Positions 9,700-52,628 are shown, counted from the first letter of the stretch. The stretch is 64,000 nucleotides of DNA from Halarcobacter sp. (GCA_048571215.1 CP182352.1:3456001-3520000), one strand, 5' to 3'. Notes: generated by a model not told the origin, from the sequence alone. Translations and numbers: made by a program.

Positions 9700-10440
9700 T
9701 TGGATTTACAAAATTATATACTTAGTCCTGATTCTTTGATAATTGAGGCATTAAAAAAGATAGATGAAAATAAACGGGGTTTTTTACTTGTATGCCTTGA
9801 CAAAGAGGTTATTGGTATTACGACTGAAGGTGAAATAAGAAGATATTTAATAAATGGTGCAACTTTAGAAAATAAAATACCATATTCTAAAAATTTTATT
9901 TTTATTCGAAATAATGATTCTTTTTTAGAACTTTTTAAATGTTTTAAATCTGAAAAAATCAATTTTGTTCCTATTTTAGATCAAAATAATTTATTAATTG
10001 AAATTGTTTCAAAAAAACAATTTCATGGATTACTTTTAAAAGATATTGAATATAATATGGCAAAATTACCTGAAATGGATGAGAATGAGATAGATTTTGA
10101 AATATTTGAGAGACCTTGGGGTTTTTATAAAACTACACTTCTTGCTAAACATGTACAATCAAAGATTATTACAGTTTTTCCAAAAGGTGAATTGAGTCTT
10201 CAAAAACATAAAAGAAGAGAAGAACATTGGATAATAATAAAGGGTGAAGGTAAAATAATACTTGAGGATTCTATTTTGGAAGTTCAGCAAGGAAGGTATA
10301 TTTATATTCCAAAGGGATGTAAACATAAAGTTATAAATAGTTCTTACACAGATAATTTGATATTCGCAGAGGTACAGTTAGGGGACTATTTTGGTGAAGA
10401 TGATATTATAAGGTATGAGGATAAATATGGGAGAGTTTAA
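9700..10440 (+). CDS. CBS-pair plus type II mannose-6-phosphate isomerase-like cupin fusion
   Basis: N-terminal CBS-like region (GITTEGEIRRYL, VPILD). C-terminal RPWG...LSLQKHKRREEHW...HKVIN...EVQLGDYFGEDDIIRYED matches the ManC/PMI cupin. Confidence 0.85.
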   Translation: MDLQNYILSPDSLIIEALKKIDENKRGFLLVCLDKEVIGITTEGEIRRYLINGATLENKIPYSKNFIFIRNNDSFLELFKCFKSEKINFVPILDQNNLLIEIVSKKQFHGLLLKDIEYNMAKLPEMDENEIDFEIFERPWGFYKTTLLAKHVQSKIITVFPKGELSLQKHKRREEHWIIIKGEGKIILEDSILEVQQGRYIYIPKGCKHKVINSSYTDNLIFAEVQLGDYFGEDDIIRYEDKYGRV

Positions 10441-11321
10441 TGGCATTTAAGTTTGATTATAAAGAACCCAAAGTGGTTGCAGAAATAGGTTGTAATCATA
10501 TGGGTGACTTTGAAATAGCAAAAGAATTAATAGATTTAGCAAAACAATCAGGTTCAAAATATGTAAAGTTTCAAAAAAGAAATAATAAAGAGCTTTTAAC
10601 AAAAGAACAATATAACGCTCCCCATCCTGTTCCTGTAAACTCATATGGAAAAACTTATGGTGAACATAGAGAGTTTCTAGAGTTTACAAAAGAACAACAT
10701 AGAGAATTAAAAGAGTATAGTGATTCTATTGGCATGGCATATTCCACTTCAGTATGGGATGTTACTAGTGCTAAAGAGATGTTAGAATTTAATCCAGAGT
10801 TTTTAAAAGTACCTTCTGCTTGTAATAATAATTTTGAGATGCTAAGAATCTTAAGAGACGATTATAAAGGGCAAGTTCAACTATCTATTGGAATGACAAG
10901 TAGAAAAGAGGTTGAAGAGATTGTAAAGTTTTTTGAGCAAACAAATCAAGCAAAATCGAGACTTTTAATATATTCTTGCACTTCAGGGTATCCTGTACCT
11001 TTTGAGGATGTATCTTTATTAGAGATAAATTATTTGTATGATAATTATGAAGATAGAATATGTGAAATAGGATTCTCTGGACACCACTTAGGTATAGCAA
11101 TTGATATTGCAGCATATACTCTAGGAGCAAGATGGATTGAACGTCATTTTACCAAAGATATAAACTGGAAGGGGACAGATCATTCTGCATCATTGATGCC
11201 AGATGGATTAAGAAGACTAAATAGAGATTTAACTGCGACATATAAGTCTTTACATAAGAAAAAAGAGGATATCTTACCTATAGAGCAAGTACAAAGAGAT
11301 AAATTAAAAAATAGAAAGTAA
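10440..11321 (+). CDS. neuB: Nonulosonate (N-acetylneuraminate-family) synthase lacking the C-terminal SAF domain; candidate KDN-9-phosphate synthase
   Basis: AEIGCNHMG, VKFQKR, KVPS, CTSGYP, GFSGH, IERHFT and GTDH; only 293 aa long. Confidence 0.88.
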   Translation: MAFKFDYKEPKVVAEIGCNHMGDFEIAKELIDLAKQSGSKYVKFQKRNNKELLTKEQYNAPHPVPVNSYGKTYGEHREFLEFTKEQHRELKEYSDSIGMAYSTSVWDVTSAKEMLEFNPEFLKVPSACNNNFEMLRILRDDYKGQVQLSIGMTSRKEVEEIVKFFEQTNQAKSRLLIYSCTSGYPVPFEDVSLLEINYLYDNYEDRICEIGFSGHHLGIAIDIAAYTLGARWIERHFTKDINWKGTDHSASLMPDGLRRLNRDLTATYKSLHKKKEDILPIEQVQRDKLKNRK

Positions 11322-11377
11322 AATAAGCTTTTGTAAAGATAAAAAGTATATAAAAGAGATGGAAGTAAGGAAGACTA

Positions 11378-12547
11378 ATGAATATTGCATTTATCCCTTT
11401 AAGGTGTGGAAGTAAATCAATACCTTTTAAAAATATAAAAAATTTTTGTGGAAAACCACTTGTATATTGGAATTTAAAGGCTATAGAAGAATCAAAAAGT
11501 GTAGATATAGTTTATATTGCAACAGATTGCAAAGAGGTAATTGATACTATTAACAGTTTTTGTTTTAAAAAAGTTGTTATTTATAAAAGAGACCCTATTA
11601 ATGCAAGGGATATTTCTCCCACAGAGGATGTAATGTTGGAGTTTTTGGAAAAAAGAAAACAAGATAATGAAGACTACTTTTTATTGGTTCAAGCAACCTC
11701 TCCAATAACACAATCATATGATTTTGATAATGCTATAAAACAGTTGAAAAATTCAAAAAAAGATTCATTATTGACTGTTGTAAATGAAAAAAGATTTTTT
11801 TGGAATAAAGATGGCACGCCTATAAATTATGACTATAAAAATAGACCAAGAAGACAAGATTTTGAAGGTTTTTATCTCGAAAATGGGGCTTTTTATATAA
11901 ATAAGGTGAAAAATATTTTAAGAGATAAAAACAGACTTTCAGGTGAGATTGAATTATATGTTATGAATGATTATACTTCAATCGAGATAGATGAACCTCT
12001 TGATTGGCATATAGCAGAAAGTTATATGCAAAATCATATATTATCAAAAGAAGAGATAAAGCTAGAAAGAAAAATAAAACTATTTTTATCAGATGTTGAT
12101 GGAACTTTGACAGATGCAGGGATGTATTATGGAGAAAATGGGGAAGAGTTAAAAAAGTTTAATACCCATGATGGAAAAGGGTTTGAACTTTTACGTGAAA
12201 AGGGAATAAAAACTGGTTTAATTACAAGTGAAAAAACAAAGATTGTAGAGAATAGAGCAAAAAAATTAAAAATCGATTATTTATATCAGGATGTTAAACA
12301 TAAAGGTAAACTAAAAGTTGCTAAAGAGATATGTAAAAAAGAGGGAATAAGTCTAGAAGAGGTAGCGTATATCGGGGATGATATAAATTGTAAAGAGTTA
12401 TTAGAACAAGTAGGAGTATCCGCTTGTCCTTCGAAGTCATTAAGTGAGATTAAAGAATTGTATAGTATAATTAAATTAACTCAATCTGGCGGAAATGGTG
12501 CAGTAAGAGAGTTTATTGATTTATTAATACAAAAGAGATATATATGA
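11378..12547 (+). CDS. CMP-nonulosonate synthetase fused to a KdsC-like HAD phosphatase
   Basis: N-terminal IPLRCGSKSIPFKN, QATSP, RPRRQD, ENGAFY and EIDEPLD. C-terminal DVDGTLTD, YIGDDIND and GGNGAVREF. Confidence 0.92.
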   Translation: MNIAFIPLRCGSKSIPFKNIKNFCGKPLVYWNLKAIEESKSVDIVYIATDCKEVIDTINSFCFKKVVIYKRDPINARDISPTEDVMLEFLEKRKQDNEDYFLLVQATSPITQSYDFDNAIKQLKNSKKDSLLTVVNEKRFFWNKDGTPINYDYKNRPRRQDFEGFYLENGAFYINKVKNILRDKNRLSGEIELYVMNDYTSIEIDEPLDWHIAESYMQNHILSKEEIKLERKIKLFLSDVDGTLTDAGMYYGENGEELKKFNTHDGKGFELLREKGIKTGLITSEKTKIVENRAKKLKIDYLYQDVKHKGKLKVAKEICKKEGISLEEVAYIGDDINCKELLEQVGVSACPSKSLSEIKELYSIIKLTQSGGNGAVREFIDLLIQKRYI

Positions 12548-14187
12548 GTAGTGAACAACTTCAAATACAAACAGAGCTTTCTAATTTGATTCAAGAAGAT
12601 TTTATAAATGCTGCAACAACTTATTCCCAAAATAATCAATTAGATAGACAACAAGTTTTAACACTAATTCAAGATATCACTTTGTTAAAAAAATATAGTG
12701 TTGCATATATTCATAATAATGAGTTTAATGAAGTTATAGATGTTTTTAAAGAGGAATTAAAAAATTCAATTTATCCATATGATATTGCATTTGTAATTGC
12801 AATTGAGTATCTACAAAATAGTAAGAATATAGATTTTTTACAAAAATTTTTTGTAGAGATTTTTTTAAGAACTCCTAAAGAGTTATTTCTTGATGTATTT
12901 TCAATTTTTAATATTTTATGTGGCAGTGTAAAAGAACTGTATACTTATTTTATCGAATATGTTTTTAATAATAAGTTTTTATTATTGGATGAAAATATGC
13001 AAATTGATTGTTTATATAAAGCATGGAACTTATCTTTACAAGTTTATCATGATAATGAAGCTTCACAGTTTGCATACAATGAGTTAAAACACCTATTTCA
13101 AAATGCCTTAAATTATCAAAAAACAGAAGTTGCTTTTTGGTTATACTACACTCCTTTACACTATTTTAATTCAGGAACTCATGCAAATAAACATGAAGCT
13201 AATCAACGTTTTCAGGATGAGATTGAAAAACCATTAGAAAAATATATTAAAAATCATATTATTCCAAAATATAAAATTACTCCAAATAAAAAGAAAGTGA
13301 AAGATTCTTCAAAGAAAAAAGTTGCCTTTGTAATGCAAAGGATTATAAGACACTCTACAGTGAAAGTTTTGTATTATTTGATGGAATCAATTATGAAAAA
13401 ACAACATGAAAACTACGAGTTTGTCTTATATGACTTAGCTTTCCCTGAATCTGGAGGAAGTGATGTTGTATTTATAAAAGAGTTTGAAAAACTTGGGCTA
13501 AGATATGTAAATTTACATGAAAAAATATTTAATAATACAAGTGAAACTTATTCTTTACTTGAAAAATGTATAAAGAGTAGAGAAATTTTAATAGAAGATG
13601 ATATTGATATATTTATTGGTTTACATACAAGAGTTGAGTATATGTTTTTATATCTTACAAGAACTGCATCAGAACAAATATATTGGTATCATGGAAGTAA
13701 TGTAGAATATGATGTTGAAGGCATTGATAAAAGAATTACACATAGTAGTATTCCAGAAAAATCAAATTTTGAAATGAAGAAGTTTTTTATATCAAAAGAA
13801 TATAATGATGAAGAAAAAATGGAGTTTGAAAAAGAGGAAAAAAAAATCAGATCTACTTATCCAGAAGATTTTGTTATATTAGGAAGTATAGGTCGATTAA
13901 TTAAAATTGATAATGATGACTATTTAGCTACAGTATGTGAAATATTAAAACAAAATCCTAATACAATATATTTAGCATGTGGTGATGGGGATAAGAGTAA
14001 TATTATTACTTTTATCAAAAAGAATGATTTAGAAGATAGATTTTATTTTCCAGGGTTTGTTAATTCAAAAATATATGGTAGAGTGATTGATATATACTTA
14101 AATACTTTTCCAGATCCTGGTGGTGAGAGTGTAAATGAGTTTGTGTCTTTAGATGAAAATAAATATGTAGTAAGTTTAATAGATTAA
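12544..14187 (+). CDS. Putative GT-B glycosyltransferase (GT41/OGT-like C-terminus)
   Basis: Helical N-terminus; C-terminal LGSIGRLIKI and DIYLNTFPDPGG resemble the GT41 motifs FGSFNxxxK and DxxLDTFPxxGG. Confidence 0.6.
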   Translation: MSSEQLQIQTELSNLIQEDFINAATTYSQNNQLDRQQVLTLIQDITLLKKYSVAYIHNNEFNEVIDVFKEELKNSIYPYDIAFVIAIEYLQNSKNIDFLQKFFVEIFLRTPKELFLDVFSIFNILCGSVKELYTYFIEYVFNNKFLLLDENMQIDCLYKAWNLSLQVYHDNEASQFAYNELKHLFQNALNYQKTEVAFWLYYTPLHYFNSGTHANKHEANQRFQDEIEKPLEKYIKNHIIPKYKITPNKKKVKDSSKKKVAFVMQRIIRHSTVKVLYYLMESIMKKQHENYEFVLYDLAFPESGGSDVVFIKEFEKLGLRYVNLHEKIFNNTSETYSLLEKCIKSREILIEDDIDIFIGLHTRVEYMFLYLTRTASEQIYWYHGSNVEYDVEGIDKRITHSSIPEKSNFEMKKFFISKEYNDEEKMEFEKEEKKIRSTYPEDFVILGSIGRLIKIDNDDYLATVCEILKQNPNTIYLACGDGDKSNIITFIKKNDLEDRFYFPGFVNSKIYGRVIDIYLNTFPDPGGESVNEFVSLDENKYVVSLID

Positions 14188-14199: not shown

Positions 14200-15165
14200 T
14201 TGAAAAAGATTATTGTACCAGAAGATTATAACTATATAGGAGCTTTTGTTTCTTTAGGATGTAATCTTAGTTGTAGTTATTGTATAAATTTAAATGAAGA
14301 GAATTCAACAAGAAAAAGTGTTTCAAGAAAGGCTATGTCAGGTAAAAATTGGGCTAAAGCAATTAATAGATTAAAAATATTAAATCTTGATTTGCCTGTA
14401 ACTTTACAAGGTGGAGAACCTACAATACACAAAGAGTTTTTTGATATTGTAAATGGTGTGGATGATGATATAAAACTTGATTTACTTACAAATATGGTTT
14501 TTGATGTGGATGAGTTTATAAACAATATTGACCCAAAAAAATTTACTAGAGAAGCTAAATATGCAGCTATTAGAGTTAGTTATCATCCTGGAGAAAATGA
14601 TATAGATGATTTAATAGCAAAAGCAAAAAAATTTGATAAAGCAGGTTTTTATATAGGTATTTATTCTGTTATGGTTCCTCAAAATCAAAAACATATTGAA
14701 GAGGTAAAAGAAAAATGCCTCAAAGAGGGTATAGACTTTAGGGTAAAAGAGTATTTAGGTTTTGATGGAAAAGAGTGGCATGGAACCTATAAATATCCTG
14801 AGGCTATTTCACAAAAAGTAGAGAAATATTGTGATTGTAAAACAACAGAACTTATAATTGCACCAAGTGGGCATGTATTTAGATGTCACTCAGACCTTTA
14901 TGAGAATAGAACACCTATAGGGCATATTTTAGACCCAAATTTTGATATAGAGCAGATACATAGACCTTGCTATGTTTTTGGTCATTGTAACCCTTGTGAT
15001 ATAAAAGTAAAAACAAATAGACATCAAATTTTTGGGCATACTTCTGTAGATATCAAAAATATTAGAGAGTTAACTGAAGAAGAAAAATTAGATTTGAAAA
15101 CTAATGAAAATTATGGTTTAGGAATCTACAATTATGAAAAAGATGAAGAGTATATAGATGGCTAA
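14200..15165 (+). CDS. Radical SAM protein with C-terminal auxiliary Cys cluster
   Basis: CNLSCSYC, QGGEP and LLTN; C-terminal CDC...RCH...PC..GHCNPCD. Confidence 0.9.
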   Translation: MKKIIVPEDYNYIGAFVSLGCNLSCSYCINLNEENSTRKSVSRKAMSGKNWAKAINRLKILNLDLPVTLQGGEPTIHKEFFDIVNGVDDDIKLDLLTNMVFDVDEFINNIDPKKFTREAKYAAIRVSYHPGENDIDDLIAKAKKFDKAGFYIGIYSVMVPQNQKHIEEVKEKCLKEGIDFRVKEYLGFDGKEWHGTYKYPEAISQKVEKYCDCKTTELIIAPSGHVFRCHSDLYENRTPIGHILDPNFDIEQIHRPCYVFGHCNPCDIKVKTNRHQIFGHTSVDIKNIRELTEEEKLDLKTNENYGLGIYNYEKDEEYIDG

Positions 15166-16222
15166 ATTTGACTTTGATGGACACAAACTTTTTTATCAGT
15201 TTGAAACAACGTATAAACTTTTAACTGAGCAGGACATTAATCCTGTATATATTGAGTATTCACCAGTTGGACATTGCAATCATAGATGTACTTTTTGTGC
15301 TTATGATTATATTGGTTATCAGTCAAGAAGACTTGATAAAGAAAAAACTATTCAATCAATAAAAGATTTTGCAAAGCTTGGTACAAAGGCGATGTTGTTT
15401 GCCGGGGAAGGGGAACCTTTAATCCATCCAAATATAGATGATTTTATAATAACTTGTTTTGAAAATGAAGTAAGTAGTGCTATATATACAAATGGGGCAT
15501 TACTAACTCCTAAAAGAGTGAATAAGATCTTAGATAAATTAACTTTTGTTCGTATCTCTTTTAATGCAGGTACAAAAGAAAATTATGAAGAGATACATAA
15601 AAGTGATGATTTTGAAAAAGTAGTTGAAAATCTTAAATATGCAACCAAATACAAAAAAGAACATAATCTACAAACAGATATAGGGCTTCAAATTGTTGTT
15701 TTACCTGAAAATTTACATACTATAATTGATTTAGCAAAACTAGGTCAAGAGTTAGGTGTTGATTATTTAGCAATTAAGCCTTTTGTTCAACACAATGATC
15801 AAGAAGGCTATCAGTTTTCAAAAAACTTTTCATTAGATGAGATAGAACCAGTATTGGATGAAGCAGAAAAATATAGTACAGATAGTTATAAAGTTATAGC
15901 AAGAAAAGAAGCTTTTAGAAAATATCATGACAGAACTTATAATCATTGTTTAGCATTGCCTTTATTTGGTGTGATATTAAGTGATGGAAATATGTATAGT
16001 TGTGGTCCATATTTAGACAACAAAGATTTTTGTTATGGAAATATACATGAGCAAAGTGTAGAAGAGATAGTTTTAGGTAATAAAAGAAAAGAGATATTAG
16101 AATTTGCAGCAAAAAAACTTGATTGTAAGGGACAGTGTATGCCAAACTGTAGATTAGATGCAATCAATAGAAGTCTTTGGGAATTAAAAAACCCAACAGT
16201 TAAGCATATAAACTTTATTTAG
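15158..16222 (+). CDS. Radical SAM/twitch-domain protein (paralogue 1)
   Basis: CNHRCTFC, AGEGEP and YTNG; C-terminal C..DGNMYSC..YGNI..CMPNCR; ends HINFI. Confidence 0.92.
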   Translation: MAKFDFDGHKLFYQFETTYKLLTEQDINPVYIEYSPVGHCNHRCTFCAYDYIGYQSRRLDKEKTIQSIKDFAKLGTKAMLFAGEGEPLIHPNIDDFIITCFENEVSSAIYTNGALLTPKRVNKILDKLTFVRISFNAGTKENYEEIHKSDDFEKVVENLKYATKYKKEHNLQTDIGLQIVVLPENLHTIIDLAKLGQELGVDYLAIKPFVQHNDQEGYQFSKNFSLDEIEPVLDEAEKYSTDSYKVIARKEAFRKYHDRTYNHCLALPLFGVILSDGNMYSCGPYLDNKDFCYGNIHEQSVEEIVLGNKRKEILEFAAKKLDCKGQCMPNCRLDAINRSLWELKNPTVKHINFI

Positions 16223-16230: not shown

Positions 16231-17028
16231 ATGCAAGATATGAAAAAAATAGCAGTAAATATTAGAAAAAATATTTTACGTATTGCAAATAGTTCAAAAG
16301 GTCCTCACACAGGAACAGCATTGTCATGTGTTGATATTTTAGCTTCACTTTATTTTAAGCATTTAAAAATAGAAACGTATAAAGATGAAAATAGAGATAT
16401 TTTTATTATGAGTAAAGGTCATGGGGCAATGGCTTTATATTCAACACTTTATGAAAAAGCTATTTTATCTAAAGATGATTTTTTTAGTTATTATCAAAAT
16501 AATGGAAAACTTCCTGCTCACTTAGACAAAAATACAAATGAAGCAATAGAGGTTTCAAGTGGTAGTTTAGGGCATGGATTGCCACAAGCATTGGGTTTTG
16601 CATATTCTAAAAAATTAAAAAATCTAGATTCCAAAGTATATGTTTTGATGGGTGATGGAGAAACTCAAGAGGGTTCTATTTGGGAGGCTGCAATGTTAGC
16701 ACCTAAAATGGGCTTAGATAACCTTACTGTATTTATAGATAGAAATAATCTTCAAGGATATGGAAGACCATCTGAGTTAGTTTCTTTTGAATCATTAGAT
16801 GAAAAGTTTAAAAGTTTTAATTGGGATGTATATAGAGTAGATGGACATGACTTAAACGCATTAGATGAAGTAATATCAAAAACATCACAAAATCCAAAAG
16901 TTATTATTTGCGATACTATAAAAGGTAAAGGTGTTTCATTTATGGAAGATGAAATGAAATGGCATTATTTTATAGTAACCGATGAGTTTATGAATCAAGG
17001 GATAAAAGAGTTAGAGGAAAGCTTATGA
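16231..17028 (+). CDS. Transketolase, N-terminal (ThDP-binding) subunit
   Basis: RDIFIMSKGH, GSLGHGL, GDGETQEGSIWEA and TIKGKGVSFME. Confidence 0.93.
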   Translation: MQDMKKIAVNIRKNILRIANSSKGPHTGTALSCVDILASLYFKHLKIETYKDENRDIFIMSKGHGAMALYSTLYEKAILSKDDFFSYYQNNGKLPAHLDKNTNEAIEVSSGSLGHGLPQALGFAYSKKLKNLDSKVYVLMGDGETQEGSIWEAAMLAPKMGLDNLTVFIDRNNLQGYGRPSELVSFESLDEKFKSFNWDVYRVDGHDLNALDEVISKTSQNPKVIICDTIKGKGVSFMEDEMKWHYFIVTDEFMNQGIKELEESL

Positions 17029-17918
17029 GAAATAGTGCTGCGAAAATAGTATATGAATATTGTAAATCAAACAAAGATGGCTTTTTAATCTCTGGGGATG
17101 CTGGTTTTGGAGTATGGGAAAAGTTTCAAGAGGAATTACCAACTCAGTATATAAATACAGGAGTAAATGAAGCAGCAATGACAGGTTTAGCAGCTGGTTT
17201 AGCACTAAGTGGTCATAAGGTTTTTATTTATAATATTATTCCATTTTTATTAATGAGAAATTATGAACAAGTAAGAGTAGATATTGCTTATCAAAATCTT
17301 CCAGTGATTTTAATAGGTATTGGGTCTGGAGTTACTTATGCACCTGCAGGGATGACTCACTATTCTATTGAAGATATTACAATAGCTAAAAGTATGCCAA
17401 ATCTAAATATAATATCACCTTCAGACCCTATCCAAGTAGAAAAAGCAATGCATTATGCGATTGCTTCAGATAATCCTACTTTTATAAGAATTTCAAGAAG
17501 TGGTGAACCAAAAGTATTTGATGACAATATTGATATCACTAAACCAATCATAATAAAAGATGGAAATTCAAAAGCTATTATATTTCATGGTTCAATTGTT
17601 GATGAAGTTTTAGAAGCATCAAAAGAGCTAGATGATTGTGCAATAATCTCTTTTCCTATGATTGCACCTATTGATGAAAAAGAAGTAGCAACAATATTAG
17701 AGAAATATAATGAAATTTTTGTTGTAGAAGAACATTTTAAAGATGGTGGATTAGGGACTATATTAAGTGATTTAACAATACAACTTGGAATTTTTGTAAA
17801 AATAAAAAAATTAGGTATACCAAATCATTACATTCATAAAATTGGGAATTGTGATTATCTTAGAAAAAAGTATGGTATAGATAAAGAATCAATTATAAGA
17901 GAGATAAATCATGGGTAA
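17025..17918 (+). CDS. Transketolase, C-terminal subunit
   Basis: GVNEAAMTGLAAGLA, RNYEQVRVD, GMTHYSIED and VEEHFKDGGLG. Confidence 0.92.
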   Translation: MRNSAAKIVYEYCKSNKDGFLISGDAGFGVWEKFQEELPTQYINTGVNEAAMTGLAAGLALSGHKVFIYNIIPFLLMRNYEQVRVDIAYQNLPVILIGIGSGVTYAPAGMTHYSIEDITIAKSMPNLNIISPSDPIQVEKAMHYAIASDNPTFIRISRSGEPKVFDDNIDITKPIIIKDGNSKAIIFHGSIVDEVLEASKELDDCAIISFPMIAPIDEKEVATILEKYNEIFVVEEHFKDGGLGTILSDLTIQLGIFVKIKKLGIPNHYIHKIGNCDYLRKKYGIDKESIIREINHG

Positions 17919-18573
17919 ATTATTATATATATTTAATAAACTTCATAAAAAAACACAAAGAAAATATATTGATAGAATGGTTGATGAAAAGATTTTGTGT
18001 ATGCAAAAAGCGAAAGAGTATGAGTTTGATTATTGGGATGGAGATAGAAGGTTTGGCTATGGGGGTTATTTTTATGATGGAAGATGGGAACCTATTGCCA
18101 AGGATTTAATAGAAGAGTACAACTTAACAAATGATTCTAAGATTTTAGATGTGGGATGTGGAAAAGCATTTTTACTTTTTGAATTAAAAAAACTTTTACC
18201 GGGTATTGAGGTAAAAGGTTTTGATATCTCAAAACATGGACTAAATGAAGCAAAAGAAGAAGTTAAAAATGATTTATTTATTCATAAAGCACAAGATATT
18301 TATCCTTTTGGTGATGATGAATTTGATTTAGTAATCTCTTTAGGAACTTTACATAATTTAAAAATTTATGAATTAAAAAGAGCAATTAGTGAAATTGAAC
18401 GTGTAGGTAAAAATAAATTTATTATGGTTGAAGCATATAGAAATGATACAGAGCTTTTTAATTTACAGTGTTGGGCTTTAACTTGTGAGAGTTTTTTTAG
18501 ACCAAATGAGTGGATATGGTTATATGAAGAGTATAGCTATACTGGCGATTATGAATTTATATATTTTGAATAG
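17911..18573 (+). CDS. Class I SAM-dependent methyltransferase
   Basis: ILDVGCGKA, GFDIS and FDLVISLGTLH; N-terminal YWDGDRRFGYGGY. Confidence 0.88.
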   Translation: MGKLLYIFNKLHKKTQRKYIDRMVDEKILCMQKAKEYEFDYWDGDRRFGYGGYFYDGRWEPIAKDLIEEYNLTNDSKILDVGCGKAFLLFELKKLLPGIEVKGFDISKHGLNEAKEEVKNDLFIHKAQDIYPFGDDEFDLVISLGTLHNLKIYELKRAISEIERVGKNKFIMVEAYRNDTELFNLQCWALTCESFFRPNEWIWLYEEYSYTGDYEFIYFE

Positions 18574-32830: not shown

Positions 32831-32837
32831 GATTGTT

Positions 32838-44056: not shown

Positions 44057-45118
44057 ATGATATGGTTTGATCTAGTAACTCCAAAATCAGTATTATTTTT
44101 TATTCCTATAATAAAAGAGATAGAGCGTCGTGGTCGAAAAGTTTTAATTACTGCACGTGAGGGAGCTGGTTATTCTGAGGTAGTAGAGTTATTAAGACTA
44201 TATGAAATGAAGTTTGTTAACAGAGGGGAGTTTGGTGGAGCAGGGTTAAAAGATAAACTCCATGCTTCAATTGAGCGTCAAAAATCTCTTATGGAGTTTG
44301 TAACTTTATATGATATAAATAGACTGGTATGTTTATGTTCTGTAGATGCAAACAGGGTAGCTTTTGGATTGGGAATTCCTGTTGTTAATTTTTATGATAT
44401 TCCTTTATCTGATTATAATACAAATTTTAAAAAAGCTTTGCCTCAAGCTAGACTTACTTTGCCTTTATCCTCAAAGGTATTTAAACCTTTTGTTGTTCCA
44501 GATGAAATTTTTTTAAGATTTTCTTTAGATGAAGAGCAAATATTTGATTATAATTTTATAGATCCACTTATTTGGTTAAAAGATATTAAACCAGATTTCT
44601 CTTATGTAAAAGATGTATTGAAACCTTATGGTTTAAATTTAAATAAGAAGTTAATAATTATAAGGGAAGAGGAGTATAAATCTTCATATGTAGATAAAAA
44701 ATATCCTATCCTTTATGAAGTTTTAGAAGATATACAAAAGAAACATGATGCAAATATTGTAATTATTCCAAGATATGAGAGTAGTTATTTAAAAGAGGAA
44801 TTCCCATTTGCAACTATTTTAGAAGAAAAAGTTGTAATTCAACATCTATTAGCTTATGCTGATTTATTCATTGGAGGGGGAGGTACTTTAAACACTGAAG
44901 CATGTTTTTTCAATACTCCTACAATCTCTACAAGAAGTTTTATTTGTCATTATGATAAATATCAAATAGATAATGATTTAATGGTTTGGGTAAACTCTAA
45001 AGAGGAATTGCTTCTTCGTGTAGACGAGTTTATAAATAGAAAACAAAGAAAAAGAAAAAATATTTTTGATAGTATGAGTTTAGATATTTCAACTTTGACA
45101 GATCAGATACTTGCATAA
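44057..45118 (+). CDS. DUF354-family protein (predicted GT-B fold)
   Basis: MIWFDLVTPKSVLFF, ITARE, RVAFGLGIP and LFIGGGGTLNTEA. Confidence 0.8.
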   Translation: MIWFDLVTPKSVLFFIPIIKEIERRGRKVLITAREGAGYSEVVELLRLYEMKFVNRGEFGGAGLKDKLHASIERQKSLMEFVTLYDINRLVCLCSVDANRVAFGLGIPVVNFYDIPLSDYNTNFKKALPQARLTLPLSSKVFKPFVVPDEIFLRFSLDEEQIFDYNFIDPLIWLKDIKPDFSYVKDVLKPYGLNLNKKLIIIREEEYKSSYVDKKYPILYEVLEDIQKKHDANIVIIPRYESSYLKEEFPFATILEEKVVIQHLLAYADLFIGGGGTLNTEACFFNTPTISTRSFICHYDKYQIDNDLMVWVNSKEELLLRVDEFINRKQRKRKNIFDSMSLDISTLTDQILA

Positions 45119-45127: not shown

Positions 45128-47185
45128 ATGTCTTTAGAAAAATCCCAAGAACAATTGCAAAAAATATTAATAGAAACTTATTTTTCAAATTTAGAGTTTT
45201 TAAAACAATTTGATAAAAACCTTTTTAATAGAGTAGAGCAGCTATCTTCAGTGATTAATAGTGGACTTTATCCTGAAAGATATTTTTTAGAATTTATTCA
45301 AGATGTTGGAGAGTTTGATATTTATGATTCCCATACAAAAGAATATTTATATAAAAAAAATCCTAAAAAGATTAACCATAAATTAGTAAATGATATAAAA
45401 CTTGATAAGAGTTCATATTTTTCTTCGATGTTAACTGAACCATATGATTTAAAGTTAGAATCTAAAGAGATTAATATGGATTATGAGACATATGAAGATA
45501 TAGAGTATTTAATAGTTAATGATATGAAAAAATTTACCCAAATATTAAAAGATGACACTTTAAGTAGTAAATCATATAAATATGTAGAAAAATTTATTTT
45601 TATGGGAACACTTTTAGGTAGACATATTTTAGATGCTCACAAAAAAATAAAAGCAAAAAGCTATTTTATTTGCGAAGATAATTTAGAAGTTTTTAGATTA
45701 TCTTTGTTTGTTATAAATTATGTAGAAGTTTATAGGGATTCAAAGTTAACTCTTTCAATAATGGATGATGAAAATATTTTTATAACAAAATATCAACTCT
45801 TTTTAGAGCAAAATCCAGATGAAAACTATTATATAAAATATTGCACAACAAATTACAATGTTTCATCAATGATGCAAAGGGTGATTTCAACGATGTATAA
45901 AACAAATCCAATGGTATTTGATTATACAAGGGTATTGTATAACTTGGTAAAGTTAACTTCCCAACGAGTAAATAAAGATAATATATTAACTATCTCTAAA
46001 AAAAGAGATAGTTTTAATTTTGCTGAAGGTAAACCTGTGATATTTGTTGCTGCAGGACCATCTTTGCAAGATAATATTTCATGGCTTAAATCAAATCAAA
46101 ATAAATTTATTGTTGTTGCTATTGGTGCTTCTTATAAAATGTTATTAAAAAATGGAATTACACCAGATATAATAAGTACTATTGAACCAAGTTTTAGAGA
46201 CTTGAAAAAATTTCATTTTACAGATGAAGACTTAGAGAAATTACAAGAAACAATTATTTTAGCTTCTGTTATTACACCTGAACAATTAACAAATAAATTT
46301 AATAAAGAAAAAGTTTTTTATTTTGAAATAAATAATTCATTTAAAAGTAACTCAACACCATATAAAGGGTATAGTGTAGGAGAACTTACTGTAGCAATCT
46401 TATTACATTTAGGTATAGAAAAACTATATTTGTTGGGTACTGACTTGGCAATTAATTCAAAAACTGGGGAAACTCATTTCTCTGATTATAAAGATTTAGA
46501 AAAAAAAGATATAAAAGAGAAAGACTCTAATAAATCATTGAAGACAACAAAAACAACTTTTAAAGATGATTTGGTTCCTGTAAAAGGAAACTTTAATGAT
46601 GAAGTTTTAACCACCCGCATATTTATAATGTCTATTTTTGCTTATATGCAAATTTTACAAGAGTTTAAAAAAGAAAATCAAAAAGTAATTAACCTCTCTG
46701 ATCATGGAGCATATTTAGAAGGAACTATCCCATTAAAAATAGAAGAGTTAGACTTAACAAACAATGAAAATATAGATAAAAAAGTTTTAAATAATTTTTT
46801 AGTTGAAAAGCTAAATGAAGTTAGTGAAAATAGATTGACACAAGAAGAGTTAGAAGGGGTAAAAAAAGAGATAGCATATTTTGATAATTTAGTTTTTGAG
46901 TTGAAAAATGACTTATCAAGAGATATTAATAGTTTTAAGGATTTAAAATCATTAATGTATGATACGGAACAGAGTATTAAAAAAATAGGTTATCCCACAC
47001 TTATGAACTATCTTATGGAACAGTATTCAAAATTTGCAAATCTTTATATATGCTATCATTTTAATGACAAGAAATTAAAAAATGAGTTTAAGAAGATTAA
47101 AGCTGTAAAAGAGGTATGGCTAAAACAAGTTATTAATTTATTAGAACAATATCTTAAGTATTTGAAAAATATGATTGATTCTTAA
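45128..47185 (+). CDS. Motility-associated factor (Maf, DUF115) flagellin glycosyltransferase
   Basis: FIFMGTLLGRH, VFRLSLF, VAAGPSL, GITPDI and YLLGTDLA...GETH; adjacent to the flagellins. Confidence 0.88.
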   Translation: MSLEKSQEQLQKILIETYFSNLEFLKQFDKNLFNRVEQLSSVINSGLYPERYFLEFIQDVGEFDIYDSHTKEYLYKKNPKKINHKLVNDIKLDKSSYFSSMLTEPYDLKLESKEINMDYETYEDIEYLIVNDMKKFTQILKDDTLSSKSYKYVEKFIFMGTLLGRHILDAHKKIKAKSYFICEDNLEVFRLSLFVINYVEVYRDSKLTLSIMDDENIFITKYQLFLEQNPDENYYIKYCTTNYNVSSMMQRVISTMYKTNPMVFDYTRVLYNLVKLTSQRVNKDNILTISKKRDSFNFAEGKPVIFVAAGPSLQDNISWLKSNQNKFIVVAIGASYKMLLKNGITPDIISTIEPSFRDLKKFHFTDEDLEKLQETIILASVITPEQLTNKFNKEKVFYFEINNSFKSNSTPYKGYSVGELTVAILLHLGIEKLYLLGTDLAINSKTGETHFSDYKDLEKKDIKEKDSNKSLKTTKTTFKDDLVPVKGNFNDEVLTTRIFIMSIFAYMQILQEFKKENQKVINLSDHGAYLEGTIPLKIEELDLTNNENIDKKVLNNFLVEKLNEVSENRLTQEELEGVKKEIAYFDNLVFELKNDLSRDINSFKDLKSLMYDTEQSIKKIGYPTLMNYLMEQYSKFANLYICYHFNDKKLKNEFKKIKAVKEVWLKQVINLLEQYLKYLKNMIDS

Positions 47186-48990
47186 GTTAGTATTTTTATT
47201 AAGTAATCAATCACTTCTAATCTTTGTTTATGAAATATATTTATATTGTTTTTTTGTTTTGTAGCTTTGAAATAAGGACTTACGAGTTTTTCAAACTTGA
47301 TTAAAATATTTAAAACTATAGACTCTGGGTATTCTTTTTTTAAGTTTACTAATATTATATCAAACTCTTTTTCATCACTTTTTTTTAGTTCTTTAAGTAA
47401 AACTATCTCTTTTTTACAATTTTCTATACTTGCTTTACCAAGTTTACTTATGGATTGAGAATTTAATTCCTTGGTTAAAGTTTTTTGTATTGATGACTTG
47501 TCTTCTATTTTTTTATTTTTGATAGTATCTATTTTTGTAGGGATACAATTTTTAAGATAAGCTCCATCAGATAAGTTAAAAACCTTTTTATTTATTGTTT
47601 TTGATAGAGTTTCAAATCTATCAATAATCTCTTTAAAGGCCAAGCTAGTATCTACAGTTTTTTTAAAGTTACCTTTGATTTTTATTAGTGTAGTTTTATA
47701 GTCTGAACTATTTTGCATATTTTCAAGTTGTATATTTTGTTGGTGCAAGGAGTCATGTGAATTTAGGGTATTTGAATATGCAGCATCAATTCCTAATAGA
47801 TATAAAGATGAAAAATTAAATATAGAGGCTATCTCAAACATACAATCACCAACAGATACAGGATAAAAGCTTTTTACTTCTTTTATGAAATTAATTGAAA
47901 TCTCAATCATATAAGTTTTTGAAGATAGTATTCTCTCAATAACTAGTCTATTAGTTTTGGAAGATACAAGAATGGTACTTGTTTCATAAAACTTTTTATC
48001 AACATTAAACTGCTCTAATATCTCCTTTTTTTTCTTATCTATACAAACAACCATATCTGGAACTACATCAAGAAAAGCTAATCTTTTCAGTGCAGCAGAA
48101 GCACATATAATATAAAAGTTTTTGTGGTGTTTTTTTATAAACTCTTGATATTTTTCCAAAGATGGACCTGCCCCAAGAATCAGTGCAGGTATGTTTTTTT
48201 TCTCAAAGTTATCTTTAAAAGATATAAATGGAATTTGTGTATGGTTTAGATTATACAAAGCTCTTTTTATATTTATAATATCTTCTGAATAAACATCAAT
48301 AAATGGATTTTTGGAAATCAACAAATTTTTAAGTAAAGATATTAAATCAATATACTCTTCGCTTGCAAGTTCAAATTTTATTAAATTGTTATCTTGATAT
48401 TTATATTCTAAGAACTCTTCTACCGTTTGGCTTAACTCTTTTTGATTTTCTTCTATTGAAAAAAATAGTTTTGATGTTTTTGCAATTTCTGTATAATCTG
48501 TTAGAAATAAACTTAATCTAAATATTTCAATATTAGGTTCAACAATTAAATAAGTTGATTGTTTTTCAATTCTATGAATATCATTTAGATGTACTCCTAA
48601 CAATGTCCCAATAAAAATAAATTTTTTATTACTATTTGTTTCTATTTTATTTAAATAAGTATGAACAAGTGAATGTCCTGATAATTCATCACTATCATTA
48701 AGATTTTTATCATCTATAGAATCAACTATAATTTTAAAATAAGCGTTTGAACTTTTAATAGATTCAGCTCTACATTTTGCATCATAAAAGGGATCACAGT
48801 TATACACCTTTTTATTTTTAATATATAGTTCAAAGTGGTTGTTCTCAAAATTAATATAACTATTCTCAATACCTTTTTTTTCAAAATCATATATTTTTTT
48901 ATAAATCAATGGATAGTTTATTTTTAGGTATGTAGTATTTTGTTGATAAATTTCTAATAGGGTATTTTGTAGATTATTTAAATCATTCAT
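47182..48990 (-). CDS. Second Maf (DUF115) flagellin glycosyltransferase
   Basis: FIFIGTLLGVH, EPNIEIFRLSLF, LGAGPSL, PD and YLLGIDAAY; convergent with the first Maf, sharing TTAA at the stops. Confidence 0.88.
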   Translation of the reverse strand: MNDLNNLQNTLLEIYQQNTTYLKINYPLIYKKIYDFEKKGIENSYINFENNHFELYIKNKKVYNCDPFYDAKCRAESIKSSNAYFKIIVDSIDDKNLNDSDELSGHSLVHTYLNKIETNSNKKFIFIGTLLGVHLNDIHRIEKQSTYLIVEPNIEIFRLSLFLTDYTEIAKTSKLFFSIEENQKELSQTVEEFLEYKYQDNNLIKFELASEEYIDLISLLKNLLISKNPFIDVYSEDIINIKRALYNLNHTQIPFISFKDNFEKKNIPALILGAGPSLEKYQEFIKKHHKNFYIICASAALKRLAFLDVVPDMVVCIDKKKKEILEQFNVDKKFYETSTILVSSKTNRLVIERILSSKTYMIEISINFIKEVKSFYPVSVGDCMFEIASIFNFSSLYLLGIDAAYSNTLNSHDSLHQQNIQLENMQNSSDYKTTLIKIKGNFKKTVDTSLAFKEIIDRFETLSKTINKKVFNLSDGAYLKNCIPTKIDTIKNKKIEDKSSIQKTLTKELNSQSISKLGKASIENCKKEIVLLKELKKSDEKEFDIILVNLKKEYPESIVLNILIKFEKLVSPYFKATKQKNNINIFHKQRLEVIDYLIKILT

Positions 48991-49129: not shown

Positions 49130-49978
49130 CTATTGTAATAATCTTAAAACATTTTGTTGTGTATTGTTAGCTTGCGAAATAGCATAAGATCCCGCTTGCG
49201 AAATAATGTTTTGTTTATTGAAATTAGCTGATTCTTGCGCATAATCAACATCTCTAATGATAGACTCGGCTGCTTTAACATTTGTAGCTTGAGTCATAAG
49301 GTTTCTAACTGCAGATTCAACTTGATTTTGAGTAGAACCTATCTCCCCTCTATTACTATTAAGAGTAGTAATAGCAGAATCAATAACTGTTTGTTGAGAA
49401 GCAGCAAGAGTTTTACTAATACCACCAGCATCAACAGAAGTTTTTAAAGTAGCTAAACTTAATCCGCCTGTATTTGACTGAATTGCAGCAGTTGAAATAG
49501 TATCAGATGAAGTTTCTCCAATTTGGAAATTTAATCCAGCAGTTGCAGCAGAAGAAGTTGCACTAGATTGTAAAAGATACGTACCATTGTAGTTTGTTTG
49601 TGACGCAATATTATTTAACTGAGTAAGTAATTTACTAACATCATCGGCAATAGCATTTCTACCAGCAGTAGAAGTTGTATCAGTGTTTGCTTGAATCAAT
49701 TTAGCTTTGATAGTATCTAAGATATTAGATTGTTCTGACATAGATTTATCAGCGATTTGAAGTAAAGCAACAGCTGAATTACCATTGTCAACAGCTTGGT
49801 TAATAGATGAAGCTTGTGTTCTTAATTTATCTGCAATAGCAAGACCAGAAGCATCATCTGACGCTTTATTGATTCTAAGACCTGAACTTAATTTTTCTAA
49901 CGAATTTTTGATATTAAAATTCGTATTACTTGCACTTTCTTGTGCAGTTAATGATGAAACATTTGTATTAATTCTCAT
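49130..49978 (-). CDS. Flagellin 1 (282 aa)
   Basis: MRINTN, LEKLSSGLRINKASDDASGL, IRDVDYA and NVLRLLQ. Start is ATG 49978, after AAAGGA. Confidence 0.97.
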   Translation of the reverse strand: MRINTNVSSLTAQESASNTNFNIKNSLEKLSSGLRINKASDDASGLAIADKLRTQASSINQAVDNGNSAVALLQIADKSMSEQSNILDTIKAKLIQANTDTTSTAGRNAIADDVSKLLTQLNNIASQTNYNGTYLLQSSATSSAATAGLNFQIGETSSDTISTAAIQSNTGGLSLATLKTSVDAGGISKTLAASQQTVIDSAITTLNSNRGEIGSTQNQVESAVRNLMTQATNVKAAESIIRDVDYAQESANFNKQNIISQAGSYAISQANNTQQNVLRLLQ

Positions 49979-50479: not shown

Positions 50480-51328
50480 TTATTGAAGTAATCTAAGAAC
50501 GTTTTGAGCGGTATTGTTAGCCTGCGAAATAGCATAAGATCCCGCTTGCGAAATAATGTTTTGTTTATTGAAATTAGCTGATTCTTTTGCATAATCAACA
50601 TCTCTAATGATAGACTCGGCTGCTTTAACATTTGTAGATTGAGTCATAAGGTTTCTAACTGCAGATTCAACTTGATTTTGAGTAGAACCTATCTCCCCTC
50701 TATTACTATTAAGAGTAGTAATAGCAGAATCAATAACTGTTTGTTGAGAAGCAGCAAGAGTTTTACTAATACCACCAGCATCAACAGAAGTTTTTAAAGT
50801 AGCTAAACTTAATCCTGTTGTATTTGACTGAATTGCAGCAGTTGAAATAGTATCAGATGAAGTTTCTCCAATTTGGAAATTTAATCCAGCAGTTGCAGCA
50901 GAAGAAGTTGCACTAGATTGTAAAAGATACATACCATTGTAGTTTGTTTGTGACGCAATATTATTTAACTGAGTAAGTAATTTACTAACATCATCGGCAA
51001 TAGCATTTCTACCAGCAGTAGAAGTTGTATCAGTGTTTGCTTGAATCAATTTAGCTTTGATAGTATCTAAGATATTAGATTGTTCTGACATAGATTTATC
51101 AGCGATTTGAAGTAAAGCAACAGCTGAATTACCATTGTCAACAGCTTGGTTAATAGATGTAGCTTGTGTTCTTAATTTATCTGCAATAGCAAGACCAGAA
51201 GCATCATCTGACGCTTTATTAATTTTAAGACCTGAACTTAATTTTTCTAACGAATTTTTAATGTTAAAATTTGTGTTAGCAGCAGCTTCCTGCGCATTTA
51301 ATGATGATATATTTGTATTAATTCTCAT
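50480..51328 (-). CDS. Flagellin 2 (282 aa)
   Basis: Same flagellin terminal motifs as flagellin 1. Start is ATG 51328, after AAAGGA. Confidence 0.97.
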   Translation of the reverse strand: MRINTNISSLNAQEAAANTNFNIKNSLEKLSSGLKINKASDDASGLAIADKLRTQATSINQAVDNGNSAVALLQIADKSMSEQSNILDTIKAKLIQANTDTTSTAGRNAIADDVSKLLTQLNNIASQTNYNGMYLLQSSATSSAATAGLNFQIGETSSDTISTAAIQSNTTGLSLATLKTSVDAGGISKTLAASQQTVIDSAITTLNSNRGEIGSTQNQVESAVRNLMTQSTNVKAAESIIRDVDYAKESANFNKQNIISQAGSYAISQANNTAQNVLRLLQ

Positions 51329-51442: not shown

Positions 51443-51456
51443 AAAGTTATAATGTA

Positions 51457-51490
51457 ATTATTACACACCAATTCTTAATATTAGTTTAAA
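51457..51490 (-). promoter_or_regulatory. Sigma70-type promoter of flagellin 2
   Basis: Minus-strand TTTAAACTAATATTAAG-N8-TGTAATAAT. Confidence 0.55.
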
Positions 51491-51680
51491 TATATTATAG
51501 TTACTGAAATATTTTTATATTTTGTATTAAAATAAAAATTATTCTATAATAAAGAAAACATATGTTTTGTATGTAGTAGTGAAAACTAGTGCTATAAGAG
51601 TTATTTTAAAATTTTTGATTGATTTAGATTACTTTTTATTAAAGTAGTCCAAGAATATTGTGACAGCAATGTATAAAGTA

Positions 51681-51705
51681 AAAGTAGCAGTTCTGCTGCT
51701 ACTTT
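51681..51705 (-). terminator. Intrinsic terminator of flagellin 3
   Basis: Perfect 10-bp inverted repeat AAAGUAGCAG-CAGAA-CUGCUACUUU followed by UACUUUA; homologous to the flagellin 2 terminator with a U-A to C-G covariation. Confidence 0.75.
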
Positions 51706-51779
51706 AATGATTATTATAATAATTTAAGAACGTTTTCAAGGAAACATTCTGCGTAGCTTACGCTACTAGTCCTAGATTA

Positions 51780-52628
51780 CTATTGAAGTAATCTAAGAAC
51801 GTTTTGAGATACATTGTTAGCTTGCGAAATAGCATAAGATCCCGCTTGCGAAATAATGTTTTGTTTATTGAAATTAGCTGATTCTTTTGCATAATCAACA
51901 TCTCTAATGATAGACTCGGCTGCTTTAACATTTGTAGCTTGAGTCATAAGGTTTCTAACTGCAGATTCAACTTGATTTTGAGTAGAACCTATCTCCCCTC
52001 TATTACTATTAAGAGTAGTAATAGCAGAATCAATAACTGTTTGTTGAGAAGCAGCAAGAGTTTTACTAATACCACCAGCATCAACAGAAGTTTTTAAAGT
52101 AGCTAAACTTAATCCTGTTGTATTTGACTGAATTGCTGAAGTTGAAATAGTATCAGATGAAGTTTCTCCAATTTGGAAACTTAATCCAGCAGTTGCAGCA
52201 GAAGAAGTTGCACTAGATTGTAAAAGATACGTACCATTGTAGTTTGTTTGTGACGCAATATTATTTAACTGAGTAAGTAATTTACTAACATCATCGGCAA
52301 TAGCATTTCTACCAGCAGTAGAAGTTGTATCAGTGTTTGCTTGAATCAATTTAGCTTTGATAGTATCTAAGATATTAGATTGTTCTGCCATAGATTTATC
52401 AGCGATTTGAAGTAAGGCAACAGCTGAATTACCATTGTCAACAGCTTGGTTAATAGATGTAGCTTGTGTTCTTAATTTATCTGCAATAGATAAACCAGAA
52501 GCATCATCTGACGCTTTATTGATTTTAAGACCTGAACTTAATTTTTCAAGAGAGTTTTTTATTGCACTATTTGTATTAGCTGCAGCTTCTTGAGCAGTCA
52601 ATGATGATATGTTTGTATTAATTCTCAT
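51780..52628 (-). CDS. Flagellin 3 (282 aa)
   Basis: Same flagellin motifs; only 47 bp downstream of trmA; AAGGG RBS. Confidence 0.97.
   Translation of the reverse strand: MRINTNISSLTAQEAAANTNSAIKNSLEKLSSGLKINKASDDASGLSIADKLRTQATSINQAVDNGNSAVALLQIADKSMAEQSNILDTIKAKLIQANTDTTSTAGRNAIADDVSKLLTQLNNIASQTNYNGTYLLQSSATSSAATAGLSFQIGETSSDTISTSAIQSNTTGLSLATLKTSVDAGGISKTLAASQQTVIDSAITTLNSNRGEIGSTQNQVESAVRNLMTQATNVKAAESIIRDVDYAKESANFNKQNIISQAGSYAISQANNVSQNVLRLLQ

Follow-up and report, generated by a model that had tools for sequence, protein, structure and literature searches.

A candidate extended flagellin glycosylation island rich in radical SAM enzymes in Halarcobacter sp.

Maf proteins transfer nonulosonates to Ser/Thr residues of flagellin. 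The closest described systems are the group II islands of Aeromonas (A. piscicola AH-3 and A. hydrophila ATCC 7966), in which a Maf-attached nonulosonate primer bears penta- to heptasaccharides (PMC7874193; bioRxiv 2024.06.23.600306) and pseudaminic acid, once attached by Maf, receives its first sugar from the conserved glycosyltransferase (GT) Fgi-1 (PMC7874193). In Caulobacter FlmG replaces Maf, and donor promiscuity of Maf is reported (PMC7591256). The locus described here lies in a 64,000-nucleotide stretch of the Halarcobacter sp. genome (GCA_048571215.1, CP182352.1:3456001-3520000; hereafter the window), and its genes include eight for radical S-adenosylmethionine (SAM) enzymes, two maf genes and three flagellin genes. 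By analogy it is best read as an extended flagellin glycan locus of the Aeromonas group II kind, with a destination and a chemistry that are predicted throughout. Its core chemistry is undescribed in the literature searched.

From the gene families and their conservation, we give an even chance to the reading that the operon builds a flagellin oligosaccharide, with an anchor of the ketodeoxynonulosonic acid (KDN) type, extension by GTs and a C-branched heptose derivative made by radical SAM enzymes and a remodelled transketolase (TK). The literature search, mostly outside subscription papers, returned nothing on radical SAM enzymes in flagellin glycan pathways (no characterised one among those returned uses radical chemistry), on the cassette described below, on DUF354 with flagellin or on Arcobacter flagellin glycans. 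Nor did that literature contain a characterised cluster with the same gene set, a finding which would have told against the original prediction of a radical-tailored flagellar glycan pathway.

The island and its link to flagellin

The host genome is complete, a single contig of 3.61 Mb. Its only two maf genes are both in this locus, beside flagellin genes, as is its only neuB gene, together with a CMP-nonulosonate synthetase. The island occupies the slot between recA and trmA, with 33 intact plus-strand open reading frames (ORFs) at 9700-47185 followed by the second maf and the three flagellin genes. It had been predicted to be a flagellin glycosylation island; its placement is borne out by the sole maf and neuB genes and by the recA-trmA slot, which holds maf and flagellin genes in most relatives viewed, and the delivery of its product to flagellin is expected from that placement.

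Features of the island (coordinates in the window, strand, description, basis in brackets; RS, radical SAM enzyme; MT, methyltransferase; SDR, short-chain dehydrogenase/reductase; ThDP, thiamine diphosphate)
9700..10440, +, g01, CBS domain and mannose-6-phosphate-isomerase-type cupin, likely mannose-6-phosphate supply (PF00571, PF01050)
10440..11321, +, g02, NeuB-family synthase, likely KDN-9-P synthase (PF03102)
11378..12547, +, g03, CMP-nonulosonate synthetase fused to a KDN-9-P-phosphatase-like HAD phosphatase (NF058599, PDB 3E81)
12544..14187, +, g04, predicted helical N-terminus and GT-B domain, GT41/FlmG-like lead (PF00534)
14200..15165, +, RS1, short radical SAM enzyme, six conserved extra Cys (Pfam, Cys conservation in homologues)
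15158..16222, +, RS2, DesII/BlsE-like twitch family, directly upstream of TK (Pfam, sequence match)
16231..17028, +, split TK, N chain (donor-side His residues and ThDP motif kept)
17025..17918, +, split TK, C chain (Gly and Ala in place of the acceptor-side His and Asp)
17911..18573, +, MT1, travels with TK and RS3 (Pfam, locus comparison)
18588..19655, +, RS3, same twitch family as RS2, RS5 and RS6, separate clade
19655..20389, +, SDR ketoreductase (Pfam; 61% orthologue, same order, in L064)
20389..21531, +, MT2 (Pfam; 63% orthologue in L064)
21577..23274, +, g13, GT-B glycosyltransferase, GT4/Gtf3-like (Atlas, weak Pfam match)
23267..24901, +, g14, putative GT (28% homologue adjoining the cassette in L064)
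24916..26409, +, RS4, N-terminal-twitch-type radical SAM enzyme (NF033640, 94.9 bits, under the cut-off of 170)
26410..28017, +, g16, possible transferase (no meaningful family match)
28014..28733, +, g17 (no family match)
28762..30354, +, MT3 (Pfam)
30344..31216, +, sulfotransferase (PF00685)
31229..31897, +, MT4 (Pfam)
31901..32830, +, GNAT/FemAB-like acyltransferase, weak (E=0.0015)
32787..34535, +, carbamoyltransferase, NodU/CmcH type (Pfam, NCBIfam)
34525..35577, +, RS5, same twitch family, long branch
35586..36650, +, RS6, the modelled member of that twitch family (best folds DesII, BlsE)
36658..37758, +, DegT-family sugar aminotransferase (Pfam)
37760..38635, +, g26, GT9 (heptosyltransferase family), not canonical WaaC/WaaF (Pfam, genome comparison)
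38595..39773, +, g27, GT2 glycosyltransferase (Pfam)
39785..41065, +, RS7, tail module
41073..42005, +, g29, GT2 glycosyltransferase, tail module
42005..42943, +, SDR, presumably like UDP-glucuronate decarboxylase (UXS), by its sequence motifs and not by a family match, tail module (PF01370/PF16363)
42949..44052, +, RS8, tail module (94% and 80% orthologues in two relatives)
44057..45118, +, DUF354 protein, the gene preceding maf (found together with g04)
45128..47185, +, Maf1, flagellin nonulosonate transferase (PF20157, PF01973)
47182..48990, -, Maf2 (PF20157, PF01973)
49130..49978, -, flagellin 1, 282 aa, 20 Ser/Thr in residues 146-205 (ATG at 49978)
50480..51328, -, flagellin 2, 282 aa, 21 Ser/Thr in residues 146-205 (ATG at 51328)
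51780..52628, -, flagellin 3, 282 aa, 23 Ser/Thr in residues 146-205

The family sample comprised 184 Arcobacteraceae genomes, of which 24 besides the present one have an RS6 homologue. It lies within 40 kb of maf in 17 of these 24; six of the remaining seven are split into 110-490 contigs, maf being elsewhere in the assembly or not found, and in G114 it is on a 149-kb contig with no maf match. Among the 26 sets of stretches compared from relatives, most had the plan recA, nonulosonate genes, a variable block, maf, flagellins and trmA; order or flank differed in G130, G138, G152, G157 and G181. The number of CxxxCxxC proteins per island, BioB excluded, was 8 in G053, 7 in G158 and G181, 6 in G019, 5 in G106, up to 5 in G138, 4 in G088 and zero in G156 and G087. 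Since the islands of relatives carry 0-8, the eight found here are the top of a range and not unique.

The first three genes, g01-g03, probably make CMP-KDN from mannose-6-phosphate and phosphoenolpyruvate, judging from their families, and CMP-KDN is the likely Maf donor. The best model for the phosphatase part of g03 is the KDN-9-P phosphatase NF058599 (168.5 bits, cut-off 180), above the KdsC models. It matches PDB 3E81, which we take to be the Bacteroides thetaiotaomicron enzyme, at E=2e-40, while KdsC types reach 9e-29 at best; a KdsC-like gene is present separately in the genome. NeuC, LegB, PglD and PseB, each searched with a single query, had no match in the genome. No report of KDN on flagellin was found in the literature search.

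Fourteen of the 32 junctions in the operon overlap, and its widest gap is 56 nt. The ORF layout and Pfam matches agree with the predicted run of 33 co-oriented genes with overlapping stop and start codons, ending in maf and followed by a second maf and three flagellins. Among the functions listed by the original prediction, the split TK, the SDR, four methyltransferases, the sulfotransferase, the carbamoyltransferase, the DegT enzyme and the UXS-like epimerase-family gene were recovered and the GNAT only weakly; the nonulosonate genes g01-g03, g04 and DUF354 had been left out. At least six GT-like genes had been counted, of which four have Pfam support (g04, g26, g27 and g29) and g13 has an Atlas and a weak Pfam match, the DUF354 protein, g14 and g16 being putative only. 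As had been said, no exporter is present: the island proteins gave no wzx, wzy or ABC Pfam match, ie the flippase, polymerase or exporter of a Wzx/Wzy or ABC polysaccharide locus was not found among them, and none has a membrane-length hydrophobic stretch (19-residue windows, none above 1.9 on the Kyte-Doolittle scale). Clusters with wzx, wzz and wza lie elsewhere in the genome, at 1.13-1.16 and 2.06-2.10 Mb (30 of the 109 ORFs of these regions were scanned). The claim that no precursor peptide is visible fits an operon interior whose gaps leave no intergenic room. The window gave no Rfam match, and the island contains no run of seven or more G or C.

A leader of about 125 nt is conserved between flagellins 1 and 2 (49979-50110 and 51329-51465, minus strand), with small hairpins (z -2.1 and -1.5) and no Rfam match; it could be a regulatory 5' untranslated region or simply duplicated DNA. 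A fourth flagellin-like gene (48% identity) lies outside the island at G000:C1:1058976-1059758. Just past trmA is a TPR and GT9-like protein (53787-55196, minus strand); at 1.117 Mb a 30% paralogue of it adjoins an ORF of more than 3,600 aa and an ABC gene for type I secretion. The protein and its paralogue are possible protein glycosyltransferases. The region 55253-58772, with a SUV3-like helicase and a 645-aa ankyrin protein, is kept by length and position beside trmA in relatives and is ordinary flank.

Radical SAM enzymes, the core cassette and other modules

The eight predicted radical SAM genes were all upheld. Every one has CxxxCxxC and a GGE/GxGE motif and scores 32-88 bits with PF04055 against a cut-off of 29.5; in 2000 shuffles of the 33 proteins the motif arose by chance in at most two proteins per shuffle. 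Eight of the 31 radical SAM matches over the cut-off in the genome fall within 1.04% of its length. The ninth CxxxCxxC protein of the window (3857-4720) is biotin synthase, outside the island. The auxiliary Cys clusters claimed for all eight are conserved among homologues for seven; RS4 had no threshold-passing homologue in the compared pool.

RS2, RS3, RS5 and RS6 are paralogues (23-36% identity) of one twitch family, with an invariant N-terminal Lys, four auxiliary Cys after the core and an H-x-N/G-F-I/V tail. PF13186 is matched in RS2, RS5 and RS6, and the conserved Cys of all four are consistent with the single auxiliary four-Cys cluster of twitch enzymes. Radical SAM sugar lyases are known from antibiotic pathways, and BlsE has a dehydratase role in that of blasticidin S. 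The RS6 model (predicted confidence, pLDDT, 86) had DesII as its top Foldseek match; by structural alignment DesII scores Z 25.1 (root-mean-square deviation (rmsd) 4.7, 343 aligned residues), with BlsE at Z 24.3 (rmsd 3.4, 298 residues), SkfB at 23.8, SuiB at 23.3 and BtrN at 15.8. In this model DesII and BlsE are tied as fold matches, and their lead over the peptide maturases is small. The best PDB sequence match of RS2 is also DesII (E=9e-9), an enzyme that converts a TDP-amino sugar or TDP-quinovose to a keto sugar by deamination or dehydrogenation (PMC11434129). Radical chemistry on sugars, as originally proposed, is thus retained, with nucleotide sugars as the most likely substrates by these top folds; of the analogues proposed with it, BtrN is a weaker match than DesII and BlsE, and NeoN was not among the matches. 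RS1, RS4, RS7 and RS8 fall in four other unnamed groups. RS1 has no informative PDB relative, and the best NCBIfam matches of RS7 include PqqE- and HxsC-type models. RS3 has 2265 homologues and RS7 794; among the 120 matches listed for each, none had a specific curated function name.

The view of the eight enzymes as one bespoke pathway did not stand, as they belong to a mosaic of at least three separately travelling modules, of which the core module is widespread. A scan of GTDB genomes with an 11-sequence alignment found relatives of this core cassette at 531 places, in many phyla and in an archaeon; the counts below are for the 80 of these 531 stretches closest to RS2, at least two of which are Arcobacteraceae and may repeat genomes of the family sample. 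The 80 span Campylobacterota, Desulfobacterota, Planctomycetota, Nitrospirota, Omnitrophota, methanotrophs and a Methanoperedens. A ThDP pair is present in 66 (split TK in 38, E1 alpha/beta in 30, both in two), in 50 of the 56 loci with at least 6 kb downstream, and within 1.5 kb in 42 of the 80. Near the cassette there was maf in 3/80, flagellin in 3/80 and NeuB in 9/80; outside Campylobacterota it is mostly without a maf link. MT1 and RS3 travel together in 14 of 16 loci, mostly with TK, and in L064 RS1, RS2, TK, MT1, RS3, SDR and MT2 stand in the same order as here, near flagellin. The TK-adjacent radical SAM enzyme of relatives is 55-57% identical to RS6 and 36% to RS2.

Some other carriers may be recorded here. 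G181 (L049-L052) has two near-identical RS-TK cassette heads, one beside maf and flagellins and the other in a maf-free glycan cluster. The archaeon Candidatus Methanoperedens (L096) carries GmhA, HldE, RS, RS3, TK and MT1. In plasmids of Solidesulfovibrio and Azospirillum (L060 and L061) there are glycan clusters where 4-5 genes annotated as radical SAM accompany SIS/PfkB genes and ThDP pairs. On a Streptomyces vietnamensis plasmid (L062, 14827-22122) an RS2-family gene accompanies a SPASM protein, UDP-galactopyranose mutase, WbqC, DegT and a GT, and the product of that cluster is possibly an uncharacterised sugar or nucleoside.

In transketolases the acceptor-side residues bind the aldose. 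The TK of the island keeps the donor-side His residues and the GDG...N motif of canonical TKs, but in its C chain Gly and Ala take the place of the acceptor-side pair, His and Asp of the H...GEDG.TH motif, of a solved split TK. This pair is missing in 42/42 cassette C chains that span the motif (one of the 43 was too short) and kept in the genome's own TK. A keto sugar of the nucleoside diphosphate (NDP) type as acceptor, as for YerE and ErwE (discussed below), fits these features. In L046, L031, L022 and many other relatives the C chain is only 160-185 aa and has no C-terminal domain.

GmhA or a reversed HldE is found in 53/80 loci. RS1 and GT9 co-occur (11 of 13 RS1 loci, 11 of 12 GT9 loci), and with flanks of at least 4 kb GmhA or reversed HldE was seen in 0/9 RS1+GT9 loci against 39/42 others. 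Twelve loci of the family split alike, four having RS1 and GT9 without GmhA, HldE or HddC and eight the reverse. A member of the NAD epimerase family occurs in 1/13 RS1 loci against 30/67 others. The genome has a housekeeping gmhA-hldE-gmhB set with an HldD-like epimerase at 2.06 Mb, and from this pattern we infer that the RS1+GT9 form of the cassette would draw on housekeeping ADP-heptose in place of dedicated heptose-activation genes.

The tail module (GT2, RS7, UXS, RS8 and DUF354) recurs in G158, at 68-94% identity, and on metagenome contig L207. At 21.6-31.2 kb the GC content per gene is 0.21-0.26 against 0.285 for the genome, and RS4, g13 and g16-g19 have few or no close homologues in the compared loci; this middle part, AT-richer and with little conservation, was thus probably acquired last.

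The operon is bracketed by g04 and the DUF354 gene. The family has 19 homologues of g04, one per genome, directly after NeuA in 10 of the 19. DUF354 is matched strongly (E<1e-24) in 20 genomes; some 60 others, with only weak partial matches or a fragment, were set aside. The two genome sets, of 20 each, have 19 in common among the 184 family genomes. DUF354 adjoins maf in 9 of 15 relatives viewed, and the two genes also occur together on two metagenome contigs. Because only 8 of the 25 RS6-positive genomes have g04, the cassette and the bracket are separate modules. An Atlas GT41/HMW1C cluster score of 0.90 and a SPINDLY match link g04 to GT41; it has no similarity to Maf, and its position makes it a candidate for the first extending (or a second protein-attaching) transferase. 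By analogy the bracket appears to mirror the role of Fgi-1 in Aeromonas group II islands.

Proposed pathway and alternatives

In the oligosaccharide proposed here, Maf1 and Maf2 would place KDN on Ser/Thr of flagellin, and g04 and DUF354, from their position and co-occurrence, would start and finish, or jointly run, the extension. RS1, in the place taken by an NAD-dependent epimerase in other cassettes, would first convert housekeeping ADP-heptose. RS2 or RS6 would then abstract a carbinol hydrogen, with dehydration or oxidation to a keto-heptose, and TK would add a two-carbon unit to its ketone. Methylation by MT1, a second radical step by RS3 and reduction by the SDR would follow, and GT9 would transfer the product. 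The chance that the core cassette adds a two-carbon branch to a heptose seems to us slightly better than even. The carbamoyltransferase-RS5-RS6-DegT block may tailor an amino sugar, and the tail GT2-RS7-UXS-RS8 may tailor a uronate- or pentose-derived sugar, both weakly indicated by their families.

A more specific version is unlikely: that RS2/RS6, TK, MT1, RS3 and the SDR convert ADP-heptose to a carbocyclic higher-carbon sugar like bradyrhizose and caryose, through a radical dehydration, the addition of a two-carbon branch and a radical ring closure, and that g04 and DUF354 install it on KDN-primed flagellin. If true, this would be the first case of a carbocyclic sugar built by radical chemistry in a protein glycan, and it would provide the missing route to that sugar class for hundreds of species.

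In most carriers the cassette would feed a hard-to-isolate envelope glycan of uncultured organisms; here it lies beside a small, abundant and shearable acceptor protein, and the origin of branched or carbocyclic higher-carbon sugars is therefore directly testable. The island also offers candidates for the first KDN-primed flagellin, for the function of DUF354 and for radical dehydratase and ketone-accepting transketolase biocatalysts.

Several observations weigh against the oligosaccharide as proposed. SkfB and SuiB, which are maturases of peptides made ribosomally and modified post-translationally (RiPPs), lie no more than 2 Z units behind DesII in the fold search, and SuiB came first in the profile search. 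Identity to DesII is only 17% (DesII/BlsE 16-17%), and the specific models were missed by far, with 54 and 48 bits against 450 for DesII (TIGR04426) and 40 against 400 for BlsE (TIGR04466). The KDN phosphatase model was missed by 11.5 bits. The GT41 link of g04 is weak (SPINDLY E=0.086; single-sequence model pLDDT 45). The co-occurrence counts for g04/DUF354 and for the cassette span related genomes, which are not independent, so that independence is overstated. The island itself has no heptose gene, and the heptose link rests on sister cassettes and GT9. The rarity of maf near distant cassettes, the maf-free copies and the lack of canonical WaaC/WaaF, all taken up next, belong here also.

It is less likely that the cassette sugars go to lipopolysaccharide (LPS) core, O-antigen or another surface glycan, alone or shared with flagellin, and that only KDN reaches flagellin via Maf. 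The cassette is maf-free in 77/80 distant loci and, within glycan clusters, in G114 and one of the copies in G181. No canonical WaaC/WaaF was found in the genome, though gmhA and hldE are kept (19 of 24 congeners have strong GT9 matches and five do not), and therefore the island GT9 could serve the LPS core. In Aeromonas one island is reported to supply O-antigen as well as flagellin (PMC7874193). Against this, the island has no flippase, polymerase or membrane initiator, the wzx clusters being separate; the g04/DUF354 bracket is tied to the maf slot; and G088, which has WaaC/WaaF-like matches elsewhere (E 1e-42 and 2e-35), still keeps the island GT9.

It is improbable that the nonulosonate itself is what the radical enzymes tailor or extend, and that Maf would then transfer one large modified ulosonate, possibly C10 or longer, and not an oligosaccharide. 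The short NeuB and fused phosphatase at the head of the operon would suit this, and a C10 CMP-ulosonate is reported in Magnetospirillum (bioRxiv 2026.04.20.719630). However, the island has at least five GTs besides Maf, and in relatives the cassette is accompanied by genes of the KDN, Neu, Leg or Pse type, NeuB being near in just the nine distant loci noted above. There is a similarly slim chance that the island is an accretion of modules that works only in part, with several radical SAM genes as redundant passengers. The low GC and scarce homologues of the middle part point that way, as does the resemblance of both RS2 and RS6 to the relatives' TK-adjacent enzyme, but 33/33 frames are intact and tightly coupled, the cluster Cys are conserved, and sub-modules recur in the same order in L064 and in G158 and L207. 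Direct modification of a peptide or of flagellin by some of the radical SAM/twitch enzymes, in the manner of RiPP maturases, is very improbable in spite of the high rank of SuiB and SkfB by profile and fold and of the PqqE- and HxsC-type matches of RS7, as the operon leaves no space for a precursor ORF, all maturase cut-offs were missed and sugar enzymes are the neighbours in every family examined.

Comparison with known systems

Like the Aeromonas group II loci, the present one is a large island with two maf genes and many GTs and tailoring enzymes. It differs in having KDN-type genes and g04/DUF354 where those have Pse genes and luxC with fgi-1 (GT2). The flanking pse genes have no counterpart, PseB having no match in the genome and the PseI, PseF and PseC cut-offs being missed, and no LuxC family member is found among the 33 genes to precede an fgi-1. 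The words 'radical' and 'transketolase' do not occur in PMC7874193, nor does 'radical' in PMC4875605.

With FlmG of Caulobacter and the GT41 enzymes SPINDLY and HMW1C, g04 may share a helical N-terminal part and a GT-B C-terminal part, and it adjoins a CMP-nonulosonate synthetase. It has no TPR match in Pfam at E 0.5, the helical N-terminus being seen in a low-confidence model, and unlike FlmG it coexists with Maf. The CMP-KDN pathway of B. thetaiotaomicron likewise has a NeuB-type synthase, a CMP-synthetase and a KDN-9-P-phosphatase-like HAD enzyme; here the last two form one fused protein, in a locus with Maf and flagellin. DesII and BlsE are the best fold matches of RS6, but theirs is an antibiotic context and this is predicted to be a surface glycan one, and the family of RS6 is marked by an N-terminal Lys, a four-Cys twitch cluster and a tail of its own.

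YerE (yersiniose) and ErwE (erwiniose) carry out ThDP-dependent carboligation onto a 4-keto NDP-sugar, followed by NAD(P)H reduction (PMC9306805). The cassette resembles them in having a ThDP enzyme with a reductase following. It differs in using a split TK (E1 alpha/beta in sister cassettes), in having a heptose as its predicted acceptor and in a ketone that radical chemistry would provide.

The O-antigen island of the photosynthetic Bradyrhizobium ORS278 has a kinase/cytidylyltransferase fusion, a nucleotidyltransferase, a phosphoheptose isomerase, a dehydratase, an APH-family protein, a methyltransferase and an SDR (PMC3899966), the same families as the sister cassettes, in a partial list, of strain-group-specific genes, that does not include BRADO5166 and BRADO5169-5172. 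Bradyrhizose requires an 11-gene cluster with a dehydratase (PMC4743980), and we infer that BRADO5168 is the mutated gdh gene. GmhA-like matches on a Rhizobium plasmid, tried as a bradyrhizose lead, were rejected as an unrelated cluster without radical SAM genes. Calditol synthase is a precedent for radical sugar carbocyclisation, and the biosynthesis of caryose was 'currently unknown' in 2022 (PMC9092360). Bradyrhizose has ten carbons (PMC9912281), as have a heptose, a two-carbon unit and a methyl group together, and by this analogy the bradyrhizose/caryose class is a lead for the product of the cassette.

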